In this document: one piece after another, positions 9,664-19,603 of the stretch | Numbering within the stretch: position 1 is the first letter of the stretch | Layout: every line of letters begins with the position of its first letter | Assembly: GCA_965248925.1 (NCBI GenBank) | Contig: CBDFLE010000005.1 | Span: 224,001-288,000, forward strand | DNA length: 64,000 nt | From: Candidatus Multivoradales bacterium | Lineage (GTDB): Bacteria; Acidobacteriota; Thermoanaerobaculia; Multivoradales; J023 | Reading direction: 5' to 3' | Made by a program: the position numbers and the translations under genes | Notes under the pieces: model-generated | Databases searched by the model: none | Told to the model about the DNA's origin: nothing | The model's input: the letters and a program-made list of their open reading frames with translations, nothing else

Positions 9664-9752
9664 TCATGCAACTGAGACCCGCCTACTGGCAAAGACATAG
9701 GTCCGAGTTGCTAGGCAGATATACGGACTTGTCGATACGAGGAGACGGAAAT

Positions 9753-10670
9753 ATGCGGCTATCCAAGGGTGGGTTCGTCTCGGTGTTAATTTTTCTTCTA
9801 GCAGTTCCAGTGTTTGGCGCCGAGATCAGCGTGACGGTCGATGAAGTGGCGTGTTTGCCAATCGACAACAATGGCATCGGCTGGGCGACGGTCGAGAACA
9901 ACATTCCCGAGACTTCTGTGCGGTTCTTCTTCCGCCGTTTGCACGAAGAGGTCGAAGATTTTTACTACGTGGAAATGAACCCGATGGGCGAAGGGCGCTA
10001 TTGGGGGATTTTCCCGCATCCCGAGGACGAGCAGCTCGACCGCTTCAATCTGCGCGACGATGAGCTTCTACAGCAGTTTCGCGACAGCGACCCAGGCGAC
10101 GATGAGGATTACCTCTGGGCTTGGTGGTGGCGGGCCAAGGAAGCCTCCGCTGACCGTGACCCGGACGACAACTTAGATACAGACCGGATTCGCGAGCAGG
10201 CCAGTGTCGGCAAGAGCGAGCCTCGTCATTGGCTGGAGCAGCTTGACGATCCCACGTTCCAGGAATGGCTGGAAGCTCTCGAGAACGAGCCTGCCGAGTT
10301 TTTCGCGGCTGTGTACGATGTCGAGGGCCGGCGTATTGCCCGGTCGAAAACCCGTGTCACCTTGGTGCAAGAGAAGTGTGATGTCGAGCTGACGCCAAAA
10401 CAGGATGGCGAGTCCGAGAACCTCACCATTGGCGAGACCGCCAACTGGCAGAAGGGAGAGAACGTCTTCCACTGGTTATGTGACGGCATCGTTTCGCGGC
10501 TCGATCCTTACGATGTGCTGCGCGAGGATGAGCAGTGTCGCGCTTGCGTCATTGCCTGGTGGAGACGGCCTGGTTTGATCGTGGCGTTGCCGACGGTGGC
10601 TTGTGTTGGCCTCTGTGACGGCATCTTCGATGACGATCCGGGTCTGCCGATCTCCCCTTCGGCACCGTAA
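9753..10670 (+). CDS. Hypothetical exported acidic protein
   Basis: SD GAGGAG; signal peptide MRLSKGGFVSVLIFLLAVPVFG; Cys-containing C-terminus with hydrophobic stretch and SPSAP end. Confidence 0.7.
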   Translation: MRLSKGGFVSVLIFLLAVPVFGAEISVTVDEVACLPIDNNGIGWATVENNIPETSVRFFFRRLHEEVEDFYYVEMNPMGEGRYWGIFPHPEDEQLDRFNLRDDELLQQFRDSDPGDDEDYLWAWWWRAKEASADRDPDDNLDTDRIREQASVGKSEPRHWLEQLDDPTFQEWLEALENEPAEFFAAVYDVEGRRIARSKTRVTLVQEKCDVELTPKQDGESENLTIGETANWQKGENVFHWLCDGIVSRLDPYDVLREDEQCRACVIAWWRRPGLIVALPTVACVGLCDGIFDDDPGLPISPSAP

Positions 10671-11071: not shown

Positions 11072-12427
11072 ATGGAACAGCTCGACAGCCTTCTCGCCGC
11101 CGCCGTGGATCTGGCTTGGGGGCCGCCCCTGGTGATCTTGTTGATCGGCGGTGGCCTCTACTTGACCGTACGCTCACGCTTGCTGCCTTTCTTCGGCGCT
11201 GCTCACGGCTTGGCGATTCTCACCGGGCGCTATGATTCTAAGGCTGATCCCGGCCAGCTGAGCCACTTTCAGGCTCTTTCTACCGCGCTGGCTTCGACCA
11301 TTGGTCTGGGCAACATCGGCGGGGTAGCCATCGCTATTACCCAGGGTGGCCCCGGGGCGGTGTTCTGGATGTGGTTGGCGGCTCTCCTCGGCATGGCGAC
11401 CAAGTTCTTCACTTGCACCCTGGCGGTGATGTATCGCGGCCGGGATAGCCAGGGCGTGCTACAGGGCGGGCCGATGTACACAATTGAAGTGGGCCTGGGC
11501 AAGCGGTTCAAACCGCTGGCGATGCTCTTCGCCGCCTGCGGCATGGTCGGGTGCCTAAGTATTTTTCAGAGCAACCAGGTGGCTGAGATCTTGGAGACTA
11601 CCTATCAGCTGCCGCGGTGGGGGACCGGGATCGTCTGCGTCGCTCTGGTCACGGCGGTCACTTTTGGCGGCGTGGCACGGCTCGGCATGGTCGCCAGCCG
11701 CTTAGTGCCTTCGATGTGCGTGCTCTACTTGCTCGGGGCGTTGGCCATCATGGTGCGCAACTTCGAGCTGGTGCCGCAGGTCTTCGGCCAGATTTTCCAC
11801 GACGCCTTCCAGGGCTCGGCGTTGGTCGGCGGCGGCACTGGAGTAGCCTTTGCCCAAGTGGTGAAGATCGGTGTCAAGCGAGCAGCCTTCTCCAATGAGG
11901 CAGGAATTGGTACGGCACCGCTGGCCCACGGGGCGGCCAGGACCAGCGAACCGGTGCGTGAAGGGTTGGTGGCCATGTTGGGCCCCTTCATTGACACGAT
12001 CTTGGTGTGTTCTCTGACCGCCTTCGTGATCCTCTCGACCGGCCTTTGGCAGGGCGAAGCTGGGATCGAGGGAGTTGCTTTGACGGTGCGCGCTTTCGAG
12101 CAGGGCCTGGGAGCTCCGGGAAAGATGTTGTTGGTGCTAGTGGCCTCTATGTTTGGATTCAGCACAATGATTGGTTATGCCTACTACGGCCGCAAGTGCT
12201 TTGCCTATCTATTTGGCGCTGAGTGGGCGCGGATCTACGACCTGTTTTATCTCGTCATGCTCTTTCTCGGCGCACTCTGGAGCATTCGGGTGGTCATCAA
12301 CTTGATGGACACCGCTTTTGCTCTGATGGCGGTGCCAAACATGATCGCCACCCTGATCTTGGCGCCGAAGGTGGTGGCGGCGACTCGCGATTACTTCCGT
12401 CGCCGGCAGGAGAATGCCGTGGGTTGA
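11072..12427 (+). CDS. Alanine/glycine:cation symporter (AGCS family)
   Basis: FQALSTALASTIGLGNIGGVA, GGPGAVFWMW, GGPMY, FSNEAGIG.AP, PFIDT. Confidence 0.92.
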   Translation: MEQLDSLLAAAVDLAWGPPLVILLIGGGLYLTVRSRLLPFFGAAHGLAILTGRYDSKADPGQLSHFQALSTALASTIGLGNIGGVAIAITQGGPGAVFWMWLAALLGMATKFFTCTLAVMYRGRDSQGVLQGGPMYTIEVGLGKRFKPLAMLFAACGMVGCLSIFQSNQVAEILETTYQLPRWGTGIVCVALVTAVTFGGVARLGMVASRLVPSMCVLYLLGALAIMVRNFELVPQVFGQIFHDAFQGSALVGGGTGVAFAQVVKIGVKRAAFSNEAGIGTAPLAHGAARTSEPVREGLVAMLGPFIDTILVCSLTAFVILSTGLWQGEAGIEGVALTVRAFEQGLGAPGKMLLVLVASMFGFSTMIGYAYYGRKCFAYLFGAEWARIYDLFYLVMLFLGALWSIRVVINLMDTAFALMAVPNMIATLILAPKVVAATRDYFRRRQENAVG

Positions 12428-12450
12428 GCCGGCCACCGCTCGGTGGACGC

Positions 12451-13584
12451 TCAGCGCGGGTTGGAGAGGAAGCGCCGAGCTGCTCCCAGCGCCTCGCGAA
12501 AGTCCTCGCGAGCCCCGCCTTGGACCGCGTCGACCAGTTCGCTGAGGGCATCGCGAGTGGCTTCGTAGACCTCGCCGCGGTGGGGATTGAGGCTTTGGAT
12601 ATCGAAGTAGAGGTCGGGATCTTCGAGCAGCACCGAAAGCGCCGTCGAAGCCTGCCGATTGTAGGTCGTCGAAGCACAGGTGGCGAGCAGTTCGGCGCCC
12701 AGTCCGGAGCGCGTCAGGGCACAGCCAAAGAGCATGCCCGAAAGATGGCCGAGGCCAAGTAGCCAGCCCATGAGGCGGTCATGATGGTCGAAGGGGACCG
12801 GCACCAGGTGGGTGTAGGGATGCTGCAACCAACGCTCGATGCGCTGGCGTTCTAGCAGCGGATCTTGACGACAGGCGAGGACGAAGGTCAGGGGTTCGTA
12901 TGGGGATTTCCCAGGTCCGAACATTGGGTGCAGCGAAGCCAGCTCGACCCCCTGCTCGGTGGCGGCGGCGAAGGAGGGTTCTAGATGGTCTTTGATCGAC
13001 GCAATCTCGATCACCAAGCCGCGCGGCCGGCGAGCGATGACCGCCGCCAGAGCGTCATTCATCTTGCCCAAAGGAACAGAGACCAGAATGGCGTCGTAGA
13101 CGTCCAAGTCGTCGATTTGCTGCAGCGTGGCGAAACGCCCAGGCTGGTGCGGTAGGGGCGCCATCGCCGGGTCGACGATCTCCGAGCTGTGGCCGAGCAG
13201 ACCGCTGAAGCGGTGAAACCACTCGCCCATGTTGCCGGCACCGCCGAGGATTAGCAGGCGATGGCCGCCGGCGGCGCGGAGTTCGATGCCCACCCGATGC
13301 TGACGCTCGATCGAACCGCGCATCACGGCATCGAAAATCGACTCCATCACGTCTTCGGAAATGCCACAGGCTTCGGCGTGCTGCCGCGCTCGCGTGAGCA
13401 CCCGGTCACCAGCCTTTTGGACGACGATCGGGCGCTTGGCGGAGGCTTTTAGGCGGCCCACGTCGCCGGCTAATTCCATCCGCCGACGGATCAACTCGAG
13501 CAGCGAGCGGTCGACTTCGGCAATCTTCTCACGCAGCTTGGCAAGAGGCTGATCCGCGCCGCCTTGTTGGGAGTCTTCTTGCAC
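12451..13584 (-). CDS. tyrA: Bifunctional chorismate mutase/prephenate dehydrogenase
   Basis: CM domain (LREKIAEVDRSLLELIRRR) plus ILGGAGNMG, IASIK, SLHPMFGP, HDRLM. GTG start inferred at 13584. Confidence 0.88.
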   Translation of the reverse strand: MQEDSQQGGADQPLAKLREKIAEVDRSLLELIRRRMELAGDVGRLKASAKRPIVVQKAGDRVLTRARQHAEACGISEDVMESIFDAVMRGSIERQHRVGIELRAAGGHRLLILGGAGNMGEWFHRFSGLLGHSSEIVDPAMAPLPHQPGRFATLQQIDDLDVYDAILVSVPLGKMNDALAAVIARRPRGLVIEIASIKDHLEPSFAAATEQGVELASLHPMFGPGKSPYEPLTFVLACRQDPLLERQRIERWLQHPYTHLVPVPFDHHDRLMGWLLGLGHLSGMLFGCALTRSGLGAELLATCASTTYNRQASTALSVLLEDPDLYFDIQSLNPHRGEVYEATRDALSELVDAVQGGAREDFREALGAARRFLSNPR

Positions 13585-13594
13585 GGTAGAGATC

Positions 13595-14620
13595 CTAGTG
13601 AGCCAACTTCTCCCAGTCGCTTTCGGCGGCGTCCTGAGCCAGGGATAGACCGCCGTCGGAACCGACAAAAACCGGGTCTTTGACCATTCTTACCTTGCCA
13701 CCACCGAGGTTCGATAGGCGATCCTGGAGAGCGGCGCGTAGGCCCGAGATCATCGATGAACCCCCCGACAGGATGACGTTCTGACGTACCTTGGCCTGGT
13801 ACTCGGGCTCGACTCTGGGCAGCAGGTCGAGCATCGCTTCGGCGACCGGCTGCAACAAGCTCTCGCAAGCCGCCCGCATTTCTTTGGTGATGTCGAGCTT
13901 GGTGGGTTTGCCATCGAACGGCGCGGTCACCACCACTTTGGCTTGAGGGGCGCCGACGAAGCCGTGTTGCTCCTTCCAGGTGCGCACCATGTGGATCGAG
14001 AACTGCGCTTTTGGATAACGTTCGGCGATCAAAGTAGCAAGGTACTGGTCTATGGAATCACCGGCAATGGTCAGGGTGCGCTGATCTTCGTCTCCCGGGA
14101 AGTGGCCCATCATGATGCAGAAGTCACTGGTGCCGGCACCGATGTCGATGATCATGGTGTGCAGCAGGGCGTCGAGGCCGTAGGCCACGGCGAAGGGCTC
14201 GGAGACGATCATCAAGCCATCGACCACTCCTTTAAGGGCGCGGCGAATGGGCTCTTGGTTGACCCGCATGGCCTCTGCCGGGACGCCGACCACGGCGCGT
14301 ACCGGCGTTTCTTTGCCGTTGCCTACTCCGGCGAGATCCAGCAGATGGACGAGAATCTCGCGTACCGCCCGCAGGTCCTTCTCTGAGGCCTCCTTGATCA
14401 GGCCGCGCTCCAGGGGCCGGTGCAAGTCAAGCATGGTGCGGTTCTCGAGCGCCTCGGATCCCACCAAAACATCGCGCTTGAGCACTTTGCGCGACACCAT
14501 GTCAACCGGCCAACCGACGTAGCTCTGGACCACATGCCGCTGGCCGTTGGAGGCGGAGATCGAGCTACGCGAGGTGCCGAGGTCGATGCCGACAGTGATT
14601 GGTTCCGTTTTCTTACCCAT
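13595..14620 (-). CDS. MamK-like actin-family ATPase
   Basis: Actin motifs GIDLGTS, IIDIGAGT, SGGSS, plus MamK-type segments SEPFAVAYGL, EDQRTL..AG, ACESL, PEYQ..V.QN, VKDPVF.G, W..L end. Confidence 0.85.
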   Translation of the reverse strand: MGKKTEPITVGIDLGTSRSSISASNGQRHVVQSYVGWPVDMVSRKVLKRDVLVGSEALENRTMLDLHRPLERGLIKEASEKDLRAVREILVHLLDLAGVGNGKETPVRAVVGVPAEAMRVNQEPIRRALKGVVDGLMIVSEPFAVAYGLDALLHTMIIDIGAGTSDFCIMMGHFPGDEDQRTLTIAGDSIDQYLATLIAERYPKAQFSIHMVRTWKEQHGFVGAPQAKVVVTAPFDGKPTKLDITKEMRAACESLLQPVAEAMLDLLPRVEPEYQAKVRQNVILSGGSSMISGLRAALQDRLSNLGGGKVRMVKDPVFVGSDGGLSLAQDAAESDWEKLAH

Positions 14621-14668
14621 AGCAGGTTCCTCATCAGGCGGGCGGCGGATTGCTTACCCGGAGCCGGC

Positions 14669-15670
14669 TTAGCCGGCCTGGTTGACTTTGTGGGCGTAGG
14701 ACTCGATGCCCTTGAAAAGAGCTTCGGCGATGTGCTCCCGGTAACGAGGGCGGCCCAGCAATTCGACTTCGTGGGCATTCGACAGGCACGACACCTCGGC
14801 CAGGATGGCGGGCATCTCGGTTGCTACCAAAACGATGAAAGGGGCGGTCTTGACCCCCCGATTGCGCACTCCGGGTTGGAATTCGTCGATCGAGCGAAAT
14901 AGCGCCTGCTGCACGCTCTCGGCGAGGCCTCGCGATTGGTTCTGGCGGACATCGGCGTAGATTCCCTCCAGCAAGCGCCGCATGTCGGTCAGGGTATAGC
15001 CGGACGCTCGGTTCTCTTGCTGGGCCAGGTGACTGAGCGCTGGGTCGCTGGTGGGGCCGAGAAAGTAGGTCTCGACACCGCGGACGTCGCGGGTCTCGAT
15101 CCAGTTCAGATGGATGGAGACGAAGATGTCGGCGTGCTGCTGGTTGGCCAGGTCGACCCGTTCTTTGAGTGATACCGAGTGGTCTTGGTCGCGGGTCAGC
15201 AGGACTTCGTACTTGGCCTCAAGTAGCCTGCGCTGCAACCGCTGAGCGATGTCCAGCGCGACGTCCTTTTCGATCAAGGGGCCACCGATGCCAGCTCCGT
15301 GGTCGTCGCCACCGTGCCCCGGGTCAAGCACGATGCGGCGAATTGCCAGCGGCAGCACCTTGGGGTCGATCGGCCGCGGAGCCGAGAACGTGGGCTGCTG
15401 CAACGGCATTTCGATCGCCACAGCATTGGCGGTCGACGGAGGCCGGCCAGCGAGTGCCCCCGAGGTGTCCGCCGGAGTGCTCGGCAACAGCAGCTGAGCG
15501 ACCGAAATACCAGCGAAGGGCAAGGCAAAGACGAACGCCGCGCCCAGCCGCCGGCTGGAGCGGCGAGCGGTCTTGCGCAGTAACCGTTGGCGGCGCTCAT
15601 CGGCGCTCTCTAGATTGCTAACTACCGCCTGGGCGAGAAGCTTGCGCTTGATCTCTCGGTCTCTACTCAT
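14669..15670 (-). CDS. N-acetylmuramoyl-L-alanine amidase (Amidase_3), N-terminal membrane anchor
   Basis: VLDPGHGG, EKD, LTRD, FVSIHLN, PAILAEV; basic N-terminus followed by a hydrophobic segment. Confidence 0.92.
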   Translation of the reverse strand: MSRDREIKRKLLAQAVVSNLESADERRQRLLRKTARRSSRRLGAAFVFALPFAGISVAQLLLPSTPADTSGALAGRPPSTANAVAIEMPLQQPTFSAPRPIDPKVLPLAIRRIVLDPGHGGDDHGAGIGGPLIEKDVALDIAQRLQRRLLEAKYEVLLTRDQDHSVSLKERVDLANQQHADIFVSIHLNWIETRDVRGVETYFLGPTSDPALSHLAQQENRASGYTLTDMRRLLEGIYADVRQNQSRGLAESVQQALFRSIDEFQPGVRNRGVKTAPFIVLVATEMPAILAEVSCLSNAHEVELLGRPRYREHIAEALFKGIESYAHKVNQAG

Positions 15671-15795
15671 CCTTTGCTCACCGCTGGGGCTACGACTCGA
15701 ACAATCTCAATGGGTTTTTCGGCGCCCACTTATTCCCCTACCGTCGGGGCGCACATTACCCCTTGTCGATATGGGCGAAAGAGCATGCTAACAGA

Positions 15796-15915
15796 AAACC
15801 GCTGCGGAAACCGCTGCGGCTGAAACGGTGTCTTGATCGCAATTTACGGCCCAAGGCGAGGGCGGGGATAATCTGACAAGCGACTCGACAGCGGGACTCA
15901 ACGGCGGGACTCAAC
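15796..15915. repeat. Short intergenic tandem repeats
   Basis: AAACCGCTGCGG twice (15796-15819) and GCGGGACTCAAC twice (15891-15915). Confidence 0.6.
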
Positions 15916-15981
15916 GCAGAACAGCCCGCCGACTTGCGGGCTGTTGTCGGGGTGTTTGAAAGACTCGTTCCAGCAGCCGTC

Positions 15982-16596
15982 CTAGGCGGCGGTCTCAAGG
16001 GTGGCTTCAACGGCGGTTTCGACGCTACTGCGGCGTCGTAGCAGCCTGCTGGCGACGAAGTAGATCAGGGCCAGAGCGGCGACTAGCGCCACCAACGGTA
16101 CGAACACCGCCAGCAGCGAGAAGAGCACCGAGGCGGCAGCTTCGCCAGTGGATACCAGCGGGTTGCCGAAGCCGCCGGTGGTCAAGGCCGAAGCGTGACG
16201 GGTCAAGCTGGTCATTCCCTGGATGGAAGCTGCCAGACCGCCGCCGCCGATGATCGCCATCGACCAGCCGAGCATCGGATTCAGCTCGCCGACCTGGGAA
16301 GCGGTGGCTACCACTCCGGCGACCACCGCGGCGGGAGTCGCCACGGTGTCCAGGAGATTGTCGATCAGCGGCAAGTAGTAAGCACCGATCTCTAGAGCGG
16401 TGGCGCTAGCCAGGGCGATCAGGGCCGGGGTCGAGCCGATCCACTCGAAGCTGCTAGCCAGCGACAGGTAGCCGGCTTTCGTAGCGATGCTCATCACCAG
16501 CATCGGTACGAAGATCCGAAATCCGCAAGCGGCGCTCAAGCCGAGGCCGACGGCGACGCTGAGCAGGGTTCCCATGAGTTCAGGCTGAGTGTCCAT
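15982..16596 (-). CDS. DUF4126 family membrane protein
   Basis: GLGLSAACGFRIFVP, EIGAYY.P..DN.LD, TTGG.GNP.VSTGE; SD AGGAGG. Confidence 0.85.
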   Translation of the reverse strand: MDTQPELMGTLLSVAVGLGLSAACGFRIFVPMLVMSIATKAGYLSLASSFEWIGSTPALIALASATALEIGAYYLPLIDNLLDTVATPAAVVAGVVATASQVGELNPMLGWSMAIIGGGGLAASIQGMTSLTRHASALTTGGFGNPLVSTGEAAASVLFSLLAVFVPLVALVAALALIYFVASRLLRRRSSVETAVEATLETAA

Positions 16597-16755
16597 CAAA
16601 AACCTCCTGGACTTGCCGCGGGCCGATACGACCTCGCATATGCCATTATACGCGGCTGGATTCGCTACTATTCGCTCGCCGGAGCATGATTCTTCGCCTC
16701 ACAGTCTGTTGGCAACATCCGTCAATCCCAGCCCTGGACCCGCGGAGACACCGAT

Positions 16756-17301
16756 TTGCGCTTCTTATTGAGAATTTCACGCGCCATCGACCGGCTCAAT
16801 GAGCGCCTCGGCCGGGCGGTGAGCTGGCTGCTGCTGGCGATGGTGCTGATCGGCGCCTACAATGCGGCGGTGCGCTATTTGGGGCGCTTCATGGGCTGGA
16901 ATTTGAGCTCCAACCTCTACCTTGAGTTGCAATGGTATCTGTTTGCCATGGTCTTCTTGCTCGGTGCCTCCTACACCCTGCGCGGTGGTGGGCATGTACG
17001 GGTGGATGTGCTCTACGCTCGATTGTCGCGCCGCGCACAGGCCTGGATCAACATCCTCGGTAGTGTGTTCTTGCTGCTACCGTTCACCGCTTTCACGTTT
17101 TTCTTGTCGCTGCCCTCGGTGCGCAATTCGTGGCGGGTTCTGGAGGGCTCCCCGGATCCGGGAGGCTTGCCGCGGTATCCGATCAAATCGATGCTGCTGG
17201 TGGGGCTCGGGTTGCTCTTCTTGCAGGGCCTGTCGGAACTGTTCAAGGAGGTGGTGGTGCTGCGCGGCCACCCGCTCGGGGACGGGGAGGTTGGCGAGTG
17301 A
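16756..17301 (+). CDS. dctQ: TRAP transporter small permease
   Basis: Four TM segments, ELQWYLF, HVRVDVLY; TTG start; overlaps next gene (GTGA). Confidence 0.88.
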   Translation: MRFLLRISRAIDRLNERLGRAVSWLLLAMVLIGAYNAAVRYLGRFMGWNLSSNLYLELQWYLFAMVFLLGASYTLRGGGHVRVDVLYARLSRRAQAWINILGSVFLLLPFTAFTFFLSLPSVRNSWRVLEGSPDPGGLPRYPIKSMLLVGLGLLFLQGLSELFKEVVVLRGHPLGDGEVGE

Positions 17302-18742: not shown

Positions 18743-19603
18743 TCAAGCGCGCTGGATGATCTCGATGTCAGTGGCCTGCAAGCCGTCGCCGCGCTCGGAG
18801 GGGCCAACTTCGAATTCGAAGACGTAATCGCGATTTGGTAGATTCGCCGGTCGCACGTCGCTGGGCAGCAGAGAAGCGTGGAAGAACGCCGTTTCGAAAG
18901 GTGATTCCGGATGCCGCGCGTCGGTGAACCACAAGCCAGGAGCGATCTTGGTGAGAAAGCGCATGTAGCCGAAACCACGTTCGGACTCGTACCAGTAGCA
19001 CCAACCGCGGACCCGCGAGCCCTCTTCACCCCAGATCGGTCGCTGGGTGTTGGGGGGCGGCGTGACAGTGCCGCTGCGCAACATGGGGATCATGTTGGGA
19101 ATGCAGAAGCCGGAGAAGAACATATCGGCCTCACTCTGCAAGGTGCGCGAGCTGTTGTTAAGGCCAACGATCTCGACCCGCAGCCCCTTGTTTTGGAGCG
19201 CTCTGATGACGTTGGCGAAGTCGCCGTCGCCGGTGGCGATCAGCACCTTGTCGAGGTTTTCCGACTGCAGCAGTGCGTCGACTGCCAGGTCAAGATCGGC
19301 GTCAGCCTTGCCGTAGTGGTTGCCAGCTTCGTCGCGATACCAGTTGATTTCCTTGACCACCACTCTGTAGCCGTAGTCCCGGAGCTTGGAGTGGAAGCTG
19401 GTGGCGCCGTCACGGTAGGTGTGATCGCGCTTGGCGCGCTCTGCGTCGAAGGTCACGTAGGCGTTGAGTCGTAAGGGATCTGCCTGATCACGACAGGCAA
19501 ACTCTCGTAGCACGTCGTACTGCAAACGCTGACCGCCGTTGCGGTACATATTGGCGACATCGGCGTAGACCCCGACCTTCGATCTCGACTTGGGAATAGT
19601 CAT
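18743..19603 (-). CDS. NYN (LabA/DUF88) domain protein with C-terminal cold-shock-like OB domain
   Basis: VYADVAN, KADADLDLAVD, ATGDGDF, L...AD.F; then G..YWY..ERGFG...FFHAS...FEFEV...G.QA.DI. Confidence 0.85.
   Translation of the reverse strand: MTIPKSRSKVGVYADVANMYRNGGQRLQYDVLREFACRDQADPLRLNAYVTFDAERAKRDHTYRDGATSFHSKLRDYGYRVVVKEINWYRDEAGNHYGKADADLDLAVDALLQSENLDKVLIATGDGDFANVIRALQNKGLRVEIVGLNNSSRTLQSEADMFFSGFCIPNMIPMLRSGTVTPPPNTQRPIWGEEGSRVRGWCYWYESERGFGYMRFLTKIAPGLWFTDARHPESPFETAFFHASLLPSDVRPANLPNRDYVFEFEVGPSERGDGLQATDIEIIQRA

Follow-up and report, generated by a model that had tools for sequence, protein, structure and literature searches.

A conserved pair of MamK-like actin and peptidoglycan amidase genes suggests an undescribed cytoskeleton-to-cell-wall module

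Two adjacent genes on the reverse strand of the window (the whole 64,000-nt stretch of "Candidatus Multivoradales" DNA analyzed here) encode a peptidoglycan amidase and, directly downstream of it, an actin-like protein (Table 1). The ORF list agrees with the pair as described in the initial annotation, including the 48-nt gap between the amidase stop and the actin start. A scan of positions 12300 to 16800 for promoters and terminators gives no decisive signal, and none of the terminator-like sites that it lists falls inside the 48-nt spacer. We infer that the two genes are co-transcribed.

Table 1. Features of the amidase-actin locus, with positions in the window
Feature	Position	Strand	Basis
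Amidase gene (putative bitopic N-acetylmuramoyl-L-alanine amidase), 333 aa, ATG start	14669..15670	(-)	ORF list
Amidase conserved N-terminal helix motif, residues 4-22	15605..15661	(-)	Alignment, predicted contacts, model
Amidase Arg/Lys-rich juxtamembrane stretch, residues 23-41	15548..15604	(-)	Sequence reading
Amidase single hydrophobic segment, approximately residues 42-62, putative uncleaved signal-anchor/TM helix	15485..15547	(-)	Sequence reading
Amidase_3 catalytic domain, residues 113-323	14702..15334	(-)	PF01520
Amidase insertion of ~43 residues (205-247) at the position of the AmiA/B/C regulatory region	14930..15058	(-)	Structure alignments
Intergenic spacer, 48 nt	14621..14668	(-)	Between amidase stop and actin ATG
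GAGGA Shine-Dalgarno-like site, 7 nt upstream of actin ATG	14628-14632	(-)	Spacer sequence
Actin gene, 341 aa, ATG start, MamK-family actin-like ATPase of the amidase-linked clade	13595..14620	(-)	ORF list, profiles, fold
Actin residues 122-153, first wall of predicted tail-binding cleft	14162..14257	(-)	Complex prediction
Actin residues 327-339, C-terminal helix region, predicted second cleft wall	13604..13642	(-)	Complex prediction

The actin is MamK-like and is not an MreB. It matches positions 1 to 331 of the 335-position NCBIfam MamK model (NF040964) with 377.3 bits (377.6 bits in the genome-wide profile search), below the cut-off of 400, whereas the MreB models PRK13927 and TIGR00904 give 64.8 bits (cut-off, 293) and 46.7 bits (cut-off, 365.75), respectively. 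The BeeR model (NF053558) scores 222.8 bits against a cut-off of 530. MamK chains in the PDB match residues 7 to 339 with 271 to 274 bits, compared to about 38 to 40 bits for MreB chains. The AF2 model of the protein (pLDDT, 92.4) has its best fold match in the MamK filament subunit 5ljv (TMq 0.92, TMt 0.97, rmsd 1.4 Å, 40% identity in the structural alignment), followed by BeeR 8r2n (TMq 0.87). In this model, the first strand begins at residue 8, leaving only about 7 residues before it, and the secondary structure includes helix 115-129, strand 135-140, and helix 141-148. Profiles, PDB scores, fold, and tree all speak against a grouping with MreB and uphold the MamK-type assignment of the initial annotation. 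It is very improbable that the protein is a divergent MreB paralogue of the rod-shape elongasome: the database name "rod shape-determining protein" and a weak match to PF06723 (72 bits) point that way, but the MreB scores listed above do not, and the genome has a separate MreB-like gene, its only one, which lies on a different contig (C6, the window being on C5) and forms a long outgroup branch in the actin tree. Residues D13, G15, T16, E141, D159, G161, G163, and G286 are invariant in all 28 clade members compared; these are, we assume, the ATP-binding motifs of the actin fold. Because all of these motifs are kept and the fold is that of a MamK filament subunit, the protein presumably polymerizes, and from fold and motifs together we infer that filament formation would be ATP dependent.

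The amidase matches the Pfam family Amidase_3 (PF01520) with 161.3 bits (gathering threshold, 27), and the matching domain spans 211 residues versus 173 Pfam model positions. Its best fold matches are Escherichia coli AmiA (8c2o; TMt 0.85 to 0.86), AmiB (3ne8), and AmiC (4bin). Residues 205 to 247 align without a break to all three, whereas Nostoc AmiC2 (5emi) skips them, splitting its alignment into two blocks. Residues H119, E134, H187, and E292 are invariant in all 28 aligned amidases that are encoded next to this type of actin (hereafter, linked amidases); they presumably correspond to the Zn ligands and the catalytic Glu of the family. Their invariance indicates that the enzymatic activity is under selection. 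The protein shares with AmiA, AmiB, and AmiC (8c2o, 8c0j, and 4bin; Bartonella AmiB, 3ne8) the catalytic fold and an insertion in the regulatory position. Those enzymes are soluble periplasmic proteins, whereas the protein studied here has a putative TM anchor and a conserved, apparently cytoplasmic peptide, lacks an AMIN domain in the Pfam scan, and scores far below the cut-offs of the AmiA, AmiB, and AmiC models (108 versus 400, 80 versus 532, and 100 versus 700 bits, respectively). The domain is best read as catalytically intact and of the regulated AmiA/B/C kind, and the retained regulatory insertion suggests that it would probably still be gated by a periplasmic activator.

The part of the protein that precedes the catalytic domain agrees with the basic N-terminal tail and TM anchor described previously, with a hydrophobic segment read at about residues 42 to 62. 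Alignment of the 28 linked amidases shows at residues 4 to 22 a motif of approximately 20 residues, consisting of basic residues followed by L/I-L/I-x-x-A/V-V/Y-x-E/D-N-L and located about 20 residues ahead of the hydrophobic segment. N19 hardly varies, and sequences with three phylum labels have the motif in common. The AlphaFold model represents residues 2 to 55 as one long helix. All 28 homologues have basic runs at the same juxtamembrane position and, also at a constant position, a hydrophobic run of 17 to 23 residues, a TM-like length; by the positive-inside rule, the N terminus would be cytoplasmic. A twin arginine (RR) just ahead of the hydrophobic segment is found in many acidobacterial copies but is not kept in those from Desulfobulbaceae and Nitrospirota, and this segment may be an export signal that is cleaved off. 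A loose pattern for the tail motif, searched near the ORF starts of the whole genome, retrieves the amidase itself as its sole match.

The pairing of the two genes is conserved in genomes whose records are labeled Acidobacteriota, Desulfobulbaceae/deltaproteobacteria, and Nitrospirota, i.e., across three phylum labels. Among 201 genomes sampled in the phylum Acidobacteriota, all 17 that carry this type of actin encode the amidase directly upstream on the same strand. A pattern scan of GTDB yielded at least 581 stretches, of which 380 were confirmed and 80 loci kept, making the carrier counts lower bounds; the amidase is directly upstream in 14 of these 80 loci, exactly those belonging to the same clade. 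A further survey covered 37 loci from 30 of 35 matching genomes (all but G203, G216, G238, G258, and G277) and found the upstream amidase in 6 loci, 4 of them in additional genomes. Among the matches listed, adjacency holds for 17/17, 14/14, and 6/6 in-clade loci in the three surveys and for 0/64 plus 0/31 (0/95) other MamK-like actin loci. In total, at least 35 genomes have this type of actin, with the amidase adjacent in 35 of the 35 found. Since all genomes found to carry this actin have the two genes in the same order and on the same strand, the pairing is more than chance. The gap between the two genes ranges from -32 to +102 nt in the homologues; the genes overlap by 4 nt in 7 of the 17 acidobacterial pairs and by 17 to 32 nt in 9 of the 11 pairs from other phyla. 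Comparing all ORFs that lie up to about 8 kb from the pair with one another, in 15 acidobacterial loci and the window, reveals no third conserved gene, nor is there one common to the amidase-linked loci within 4 kb among the 80 GTDB loci listed. Neither the DUF4126 gene upstream of the pair in the window nor the chorismate mutase/prephenate dehydrogenase gene downstream of it is a conserved neighbor.

In the actin tree, the 31 linked actins included form a single clade (SH-aLRT, 100), so that the association with the amidase requires one change. The genome encodes four Amidase_3 proteins, including the linked one. An amidase tree with 11 paralogues from six genomes contains long branches and does not unite the linked amidases, requiring two changes. 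After removal of six long or partial paralogue rows (L122 and L133 to L137), the 28 linked amidases separate from the 5 remaining paralogues with support of 99/97; as these paralogues themselves make up one group, the test is weak.

The best explanation is that the pair is unconnected with magnetosomes. Whole-genome profile searches (the genome is 96.9% complete and not closed) show no match to MamB or MamQ and, for MamP, just two sub-threshold matches of 40 and 24 bits (cut-off, 300). MamI likewise has no match, but its control matched in no genome either, so that this search is uninformative. No full magnetosome cluster is found in these searches, and the flanking ORFs scanned with Pfam and NCBIfam (about 9 to 21 kb) are unrelated to mam genes, in line with the claim of the initial annotation that the window has no other mam genes. 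The MamK-like proteins L108 (470 bits with the MamK model), L101, L102, and P0144 (508 bits) all fall outside the amidase-linked clade. L108 is found in a FeoB-DtxR-x-MamK-coiled-coil-HEAT context, and the FeoB-containing contexts of L108, L101, and L102 are, judging by mad-gene layouts, presumably magnetosome clusters. The idea that the actin is a magnetosome MamK left behind or silenced, its cluster having been lost or not assembled, draws on its score near the MamK cut-off (377 versus 400) and on the unclosed genome, but it is extremely unlikely given the absence of MamB and MamQ matches, the weakness of the MamP matches, the location of the FeoB-context proteins elsewhere in the tree, and the membership of the actin in a separate, well-supported, amidase-defined clade from at least 35 genomes.

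Complex prediction for the actin and residues 1 to 44 of the amidase gives ipSAE values of 0.81, 0.72, and 0.81 in the runs, compared to 0.00 for the best control. These values reach the mark of the tool; so do 58 of 80 solved complexes and, among mismatched pairs, 2 of 110, proportions that apply only roughly here because our own alignments were used. The runs share at least 82% of the contacts, with a partner pLDDT of at least 63. In the predicted complex, the tail sits in the cleft that subdomains IA and IIA of the actin form. On the amidase side, the predicted contacts (residues 4, 7-16, 18-20, and 22) all lie within the conserved motif; on the actin side, they include residues 122-123, 126, 136-139, 143, 147, 150, and 152-153 of the first wall and 327, 330-331, 335, and 338-339 of the second. 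Of the 341 actin positions, 15 are specific to the linked clade, with conservation of 90% or more inside it and sharing of 20% or less beyond it, and 16 separate the two subclades. Each set includes 2 of the 21 interface residues, which is no enrichment (p = 0.23 and p = 0.26, respectively), so that neither comparison supports the interface. In the ParM-ParR complex and in those of actin with WH2/gelsolin-type ligands, a short helix of the partner occupies the IA/IIA (1 and 3) cleft. This is the same cleft as predicted here, whereas the partners in those complexes are adaptors for DNA segregation or regulators in the cytosol, not membrane enzymes. The score expresses how confident the model itself is and, since solved peptide-in-cleft complexes exist for the actin family (ParM-ParR and actin-WH2), part of it may reflect likeness to those. 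The same cleft serves subunit contacts in F-actin and ParM, so that the site may be open only at the filament end or on monomers, in which case the mechanism would become one of end-capping, end-tracking, or sequestering.

A preprint credits Lefevre (2013) with MamK "homologues in non-magnetotactic genomes." To our knowledge, none of the non-magnetotactic MamK-like actins, BeeR and Bbp among them, has an assigned function or partner, and no link between a MamK-like actin and an amidase was found in the literature searched, which included few subscription journals; the two papers there that contain both terms bear titles on unrelated subjects (B. subtilis nanotubes and locust immune responses). 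The actin described here resembles MamK (5ljv, 5ljw, and 5jyg) in its full-length homology, filament-conformation fold, and conserved ATP-binding motifs but differs from it in scoring below the family cut-off, forming a separate clade, and having an amidase partner and no mam or mad neighbor among the ORFs scanned. In MreB-RodZ and FtsA-FtsN, an actin binds the cytoplasmic N terminus of a bitopic protein whose periplasmic part takes part in peptidoglycan metabolism; RodZ and FtsN, however, are not hydrolases and bind subdomain IIA of MreB and 1C of FtsA, respectively, and both of these actins bind the membrane themselves.

BeeR is a MamK-related actin of non-magnetotactic Verrucomicrobiota that forms a three-stranded tubular filament, shows 25 to 30% identity to MamK, and carries a disordered N-terminal extension of 30 to 50 residues; the main text makes no mention of an amidase partner (PMC11929497). 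The actin studied here has no such extension, is 40% identical to MamK, and scores 223 bits with the BeeR model (cut-off, 530). Bbp ("big bacteria protein"), known from "Candidatus Electrothrix gigas," is described as a MamK-like actin outside magnetosome clusters with Desulfobulbales among its hosts. Its gene shares a three-gene cluster with those of a hypothetical protein and of one with a Kelch domain, and the main text does not use the word "amidase" (PMC10580974). In gene context, Bbp (Kelch cluster) thus differs from the actin studied here (amidase partner); no Kelch domain is found by Pfam in six ORFs scanned around the pair. The bactofilin-M23 peptidase module BacA-LmdC offers a parallel from outside the actin family: reportedly, the polymer gene is clustered with the hydrolase gene, the hydrolase binds the polymer directly, and recruitment of LmdC needs a conserved cytoplasmic motif of the hydrolase (PMC10945521). 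To that extent, the two systems share the clustering of a polymer gene with that of a bitopic wall hydrolase, which here extends to 35 of the 35 genomes found. The nucleotide-independent bactofilin, M23 endopeptidase, and beta-hairpin motif are replaced here by an actin ATPase, an Amidase_3 domain, and a helix, and the comparison is an analogy only, as there is no homology.

We assign a probability of roughly 0.6 to the reading that the two genes form an operon for a non-magnetosomal cytoskeleton-to-cell-wall module, in which a tail-in-cleft contact lets an actin filament position the amidase. The first gene product would be a bitopic inner-membrane protein with a cytoplasmic amphipathic helix, a basic stretch, a TM segment, a flexible linker, and a periplasmic Amidase_3 domain; the second would be a MamK-family actin-like ATPase, presumably polymerizing. 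The N-terminal helix of the amidase would insert into the hydrophobic IA/IIA cleft of the actin, and the filament would then set the membrane location of the amidase. In return, the filament, which is taken to lack a membrane anchor, would be tethered to the membrane by the amidase. The outcome would be a spatially confined cleavage of peptide stems from peptidoglycan, which might serve daughter-cell separation or local remodeling of wall or shape. The initial annotation proposed just such a module, with actin filaments placing the amidase through its tail; the predicted contact and the conserved pairing favor this proposal, while the positioning of the hydrolase by the filament and the cellular process served are what the module might do.

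Alternatively, the operon might merely combine two proteins in the service of the envelope or of division. There would be no contact between them, the tail being a Tat or Sec export signal or a signal anchor and the actin having some other cytoplasmic job. In E. coli, AmiA and AmiC are exported by way of Tat signals, the RR pair precedes the hydrophobic segment in many acidobacterial copies, and the clade-specific residues show no enrichment at the predicted interface. This reading is unlikely, as the tail motif with its near-invariant Asn is kept under three phylum labels and the RR is not, the hydrophobic run is TM-like in length, the pairing is strict in all 35 genomes found, and the predicted contacts fall on the motif with controls at 0.00.

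A bolder and rather doubtful version is a cytomotive, ParM-like machine, whose ATP-driven polymer dynamics in the cytoplasm would push, pull, or space the periplasmic hydrolase along the membrane. With the tail in the barbed-end cleft, filaments would grow or shrink at their amidase-bound ends. As a corollary, the MamK family would go back to a design in which a filament is paired with a cleft-binding adaptor encoded just upstream. Among the matches listed, the Planctomycetota MamK-like loci encode upstream coiled-coil proteins with GGDEF or PilZ domains; if the cytomotive reading is true, that clade would be a further instance, and the positioning of magnetosomes would be one late specialization of the adaptor-filament design.

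The contact might also be real with the roles reversed, the tail serving as an anchor, nucleator, or end-cap for a filament whose cargo is another membrane protein, an inclusion, or DNA, and the amidase activity fixing the anchor to the wall. Such an arrangement would suit an actin that, as we assume, lacks a membrane-binding element, and in other actins, ParM with ParR among them, this cleft is an end or contact site. Other MamK-family clades have quite different upstream partners, which suggests a family-wide "adaptor plus filament" design. It is nonetheless distinctly improbable, since no third conserved gene is found near the pair, the loose search of the genome does not find the tail motif elsewhere, and the catalytic residues of the amidase are invariant.

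Through the pairing, a whole actin clade gains a partner that is strictly conserved and whose biochemistry is known, and the predicted contact is concrete and testable, consisting of one short peptide and one cleft. If the reading of the pair as a cytoskeleton-to-cell-wall module is true, it would provide the first functional handle on non-magnetosome MamK-type filaments, an actin-based counterpart of the bactofilin-M23 peptidase module, and a new route for positioning a peptidoglycan amidase from the cytoplasm. Relatives in the amidase-linked clade straddle the MamK cut-off of 400 (P0121, 392.7 bits; P0125, 425.2 bits). Because clade members score around or above this cut-off, the use of mamK as a marker for magnetotactic bacteria can catch them. 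For one member of the cluster, the name in the deposited record is already "MamK family actin-like protein [Nitrospira sp.]".

The window encodes an actin of a new MamK-family clade together with a new, strictly conserved partner, an enzyme of the Amidase_3 family. The actin gene lies 48 nt downstream of the amidase gene on the same strand; the spacer carries a GAGGA ribosome-binding site 7 nt ahead of the actin ATG, and a promoter/terminator scan found no terminator-like site within it. The initial annotation had pointed out this pair and its spacing, and the ORF listing gives the same coordinates. A DUF4126 membrane protein (162 bits) is encoded 311 nt upstream of the amidase, also on the same strand; no such gene was found beside the pair in the other loci compared. 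If read from the first TTG, the ORF for a chorismate mutase / prephenate dehydrogenase begins within the actin gene and shares its final 74 nt. Since the CM_2 domain of this ORF begins only at residue 45, a later start codon is probably the true one. In the loci compared, the gene does not recur beside the pair. Two further ORFs of the window encode a 334-aa protein without a Pfam match, rich in acidic residues and with several Trp and Cys residues and a hydrophobic segment at its N terminus, and a 286-aa protein with an N-terminal NYN ribonuclease-type domain (residues 9 to 163, 83 bits), followed by about 120 C-terminal residues without a Pfam match.

Features of the window and of related loci and proteins discussed in the text
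Feature	Position or members	Strand	Source
Amidase gene, 333 aa	14669-15670	-	ORF listing
MamK-like actin gene, 341 aa	13595-14620	-	ORF listing
DUF4126 membrane protein	15982-16599	-	
Chorismate mutase / prephenate dehydrogenase ORF	12451-13668	-	
334-aa ORF	9666-10670	+	
286-aa NYN protein	18743-19603	-	
Desulfovibrionales bacterium strain Dsd-1 locus	L108:2473-12202		
Members of the 14-protein long MamK-like clade	P0133, P0135, P0137, P0139-P0143, P0145, P0148-P0151, P0153		database representatives

The actin matches the NCBIfam MamK model over its entire length with 377.3 bits, which is below the cut-off of 400, as against 222.8 bits for BeeR and 64.8 bits for MreB; its Pfam match is a weak one to MreB_Mbl (72 bits). 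Among PDB chains, three MamK entries score 271 to 274 bits (residues 7 to 339), BeeR 172 and MreB about 38 to 40. The AlphaFold model (pLDDT 92.4), built on an alignment of 28 clade members, is closest to the filament-state subunit of MamK, 5ljv (TMq 0.92, TMt 0.97, rmsd 1.4 Å, 40% identity), with BeeR in second place (TMq 0.87). The NCBIfam, PDB and fold scores thus favour MamK, and the assignment to MamK rather than MreB, originally made from sequence motifs, was right. The named homologues are proteins from Acidobacteria/Acidobacteriota MAGs, annotated as 'rod shape-determining protein'.

Despite this relationship, the actin is not a magnetosome gene. Six-frame profile searches of the whole host assembly (7.98 Mb in 6 contigs, 96.9% complete) show a single MamK-like gene, the one in the window, and an MreB-like gene on another contig, with no matches to MamB or MamQ. 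MamP gave only partial matches of 40 and 24 bits (cut-off 300), and its model also produced sub-cut-off matches in 10 of 14 control genomes; MamI was not detected in the host, but neither was it in the control genomes, so this negative carries no weight. The MamB, MamQ and MamP searches agree with the earlier view of a role outside magnetosomes.

Of 201 genomes drawn evenly from the host's phylum, 17 have the actin (called at E ≤ 1e-40); they span every family sampled in the host's order, part of those in its class, and two additional families. All 17 carry the amidase gene immediately upstream on the same strand, an arrangement referred to here as linked. Two related genomes (G186 and G196) are single-contig assemblies. 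GTDB species genomes were then scanned for a pattern taken from a diverse MamK-family alignment headed by a Planctomycetota-type row, which yielded at least 380 confirmed matches. Among the matches listed, 80 loci were analysed: an amidase is found upstream in 14, it is missing from 64 whose upstream sequence covers 1 kb or more, and 2 are too short upstream to score. The linked loci are labelled “Ca. Sulfobium,” Nitrospirae/Nitrospiraceae, Desulfobulbaceae/Desulfobulbus, 'Deltaproteobacteria'/'delta proteobacterium' MAGs, an 'uncultured bacterium', and Thermoanaerobaculia. The linked type occurs in 3 of 121 genomes of the order of a Desulfobulbus MAG, a count that leaves out five matching genomes that gave no locus, and in 3 of 151 genomes of the phylum of a “Ca. 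Sulfobium” MAG; in these two samples, the amidase is present at 6/6 linked-type loci and at 0/31 other MamK-like loci. All samples together contain 35 distinct genomes with the pair, and no clade member was seen to lack it, so that the adjacency first noticed in the window is indeed conserved. The spacing of the two genes varies from -32 to +102 nt, with a 4-nt overlap in 7 of the 17 acidobacterial pairs and a 17- to 32-nt overlap in 9 of the 11 pairs from other phyla. ORF comparisons of the acidobacterial and GTDB loci found no third gene common to the linked loci.

Linkage to the amidase coincides with a single clade of actins. In a maximum-likelihood tree of 168 rows (quick search, LG+G4, SH-aLRT support only, rooted on the host genome's own MreB), a branch with support 100 separates the 31 linked actins, joined by 3 database representatives placed by sequence alone, from 64/64 unlinked ones; amidase linkage therefore needs one change. 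The clade consists of two subclades, one acidobacterial and the other comprising Desulfobulbaceae, Nitrospirota and one genome of the host's phylum. The copy from the Thermoanaerobaculia MAG groups with actins from genomes of the host's own class, which makes the host itself probably a member of Thermoanaerobaculia. Database representative P0125, placed by the tree inside the linked clade, scores 425 bits, over the NCBIfam MamK cut-off, and one sequence in its cluster bears the database name 'MamK family actin-like protein [Nitrospira sp.]'. Surveys of magnetotactic bacteria that use mamK as a marker could therefore pick up and count such genes.

The partner contains an Amidase_3 domain (PF01520, residues 113 to 323, 161 bits). 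The host genome has four Amidase_3 genes, which marks this one as an extra, specialised copy. H119, E134, H187, and E292, which we take to be the zinc ligands and the catalytic glutamate, are invariant in 28/28 aligned partner amidases. The AlphaFold model (pLDDT 81) consists of a long helix (residues 2 to 55), a low-confidence linker (61 to 88), and a compact domain (112 to 332); its top structural matches are Escherichia coli AmiA (TMt 0.85 to 0.86), Bartonella AmiB, and E. coli AmiC. In sequence, residues 205 to 247 align unbroken with AmiB, AmiA, and AmiC, and Nostoc AmiC2 aligns in two blocks that leave out exactly these residues. This stretch lies where AmiA/B/C have their regulatory insertion, which keeps the active site closed off before a LytM-domain activator is bound, so the amidase is probably gated in the periplasm as well. 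A Pfam scan found no AMIN or other targeting domain. A basic run precedes a hydrophobic segment of transmembrane length, which, by the positive-inside rule, points to an N-in topology. The first 20 or so residues contain a motif, kept in all 28 partner amidases, of basic residues, L/I-L/I, two residues, A/V-V/Y, one residue, E/D, N, and L/I/V, with N19 nearly invariant; the acidobacterial and Desulfobulbaceae/Nitrospirota consensus sequences are clearly versions of one motif. Such a conserved, putatively cytoplasmic peptide on a periplasmic enzyme would call for a cytoplasmic partner.

Complex prediction from the actin alignment and amidase residues 1 to 44 gave ipSAE values of 0.81, 0.72, and 0.81, as against 0.00 for the best of three controls, in line with the tail-mediated positioning proposed initially. 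In a benchmark that is approximate here because the alignments were custom-built, 58 of 80 solved complexes and 2 of 110 mismatched pairs attained this ipSAE mark. Agreement between the runs is at least 82% of contacts, with a partner pLDDT of at least 63. Predicted contacts on the amidase (residues 4, 7-16, 18-20, and 22) coincide with the conserved motif; those on the actin (122-123, 126, 136-139, 143, 147, 150, 152-153, 172-174, 327, 330-331, 335, and 338-339) map to the helix that follows the catalytic Glu, the loop behind strand 165-171, and the helix at the C terminus. By correspondence with actin, we take this site to be the hydrophobic cleft that separates subdomain IA from IIA and serves actin for binding WH2 or gelsolin ligands and ParM for binding ParR. 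Solved structures of such peptide-cleft complexes exist, and similarity to them may account for part of the score. Neither clade-specific residues (at least 90% conserved in linked actins, at most 20% shared outside; 2/21, p = 0.23) nor subclade-separating ones (2/21, p = 0.26) are enriched at the predicted interface, and cleft residues F143, Y147, L152, G172, and D330 are conserved in linked as well as unlinked MamK-like sequences of the sample. Such conservation of the cleft fits a general partner site and does not single out the amidase as the partner.

The conserved pairing, the single clade, the lack of MamB and MamQ matches, and the predicted tail contact support, at the computational level, the reading of the pair as a non-magnetosome cytoskeletal module, and we put the probability that actin and amidase form a coupled module at about 60%. 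The filament (no membrane anchor was identified in the actin) and the bitopic amidase would hold each other via the tail-cleft contact, and the cytoplasmic polymer would thereby set where the periplasmic amidase acts, perhaps in cell separation or in the remodelling of poles or shape. In F-actin and ParM, the cleft is buried inside filaments; if it were buried here too, the amidase would sit at filament ends, which, by analogy, would open a ParM-like end-tracking variant.

MamK-like actins without magnetosomes include BeeR of Verrucomicrobiota, whose function is unknown (PMC11929497), and Bbp of giant bacteria, which has a Kelch-domain neighbour (PMC10580974); another paper makes a general remark to this effect, citing Lefevre 2013 (10.1101/682252). 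The nearest functional analogue is the bactofilin-M23 peptidase (LmdC) system, in which the genes are clustered and the hydrolase has been shown to bind the polymer directly and to possess a conserved cytoplasmic motif (PMC10945521), whereas binding is predicted here. The pair might work by analogy with such cytoskeleton-hydrolase modules. A literature search of incomplete coverage found no paper tying a MamK-like actin to an amidase.

Several other groups of MamK-like actins were encountered. GTDB loci L040 to L107, mostly labelled Planctomycetota, represent a large clade in which a different gene is conserved upstream of the actin in the same orientation; among the matches listed, 51 of the 80 loci have this gene, which encodes a coiled-coil-looking protein. 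Pfam scans of six copies detected GGDEF at the N terminus in two (61 and 47 bits) and a borderline match to PilZ in one (22 bits); the remaining copies matched no Pfam family. This may be a second pairing of an adaptor with a MamK-like filament, perhaps with a link to c-di-GMP. Another 14 MamK-like proteins, 523 to 1232 aa long, form a well-supported clade in which the actin domain is C-terminal; the N-terminal extension of about 200 to 900 residues had no Pfam match in the 9 proteins scanned. Loci L141 to L167 come from the order of sampled genome G201, Desulfobulbales by the label of locus L118. Other MamK-like actins, 37 to 45% identical to the window actin over full-length matches, are found in 32 of the 121 sampled genomes of this order, without an amidase at the loci examined. 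Fifteen of these genomes have two MamK-like matches each, and the 14 loci showing both copies have them 0.6 to 1 kb apart on the same strand. Locus L108 encodes a MamK scoring 470 bits, in the order FeoB, a DtxR-like regulator, a 216-aa ORF, MamK, 112-aa and 256-aa ORFs (neither with a family match), two coiled-coil proteins, and a HEAT-repeat protein, a layout that, in our estimation, resembles a deltaproteobacterial magnetosome (mad) cluster. An ORF of the size of the FeoB GTPase is also found upstream of MamK in locus L102 and downstream of it in locus L101.
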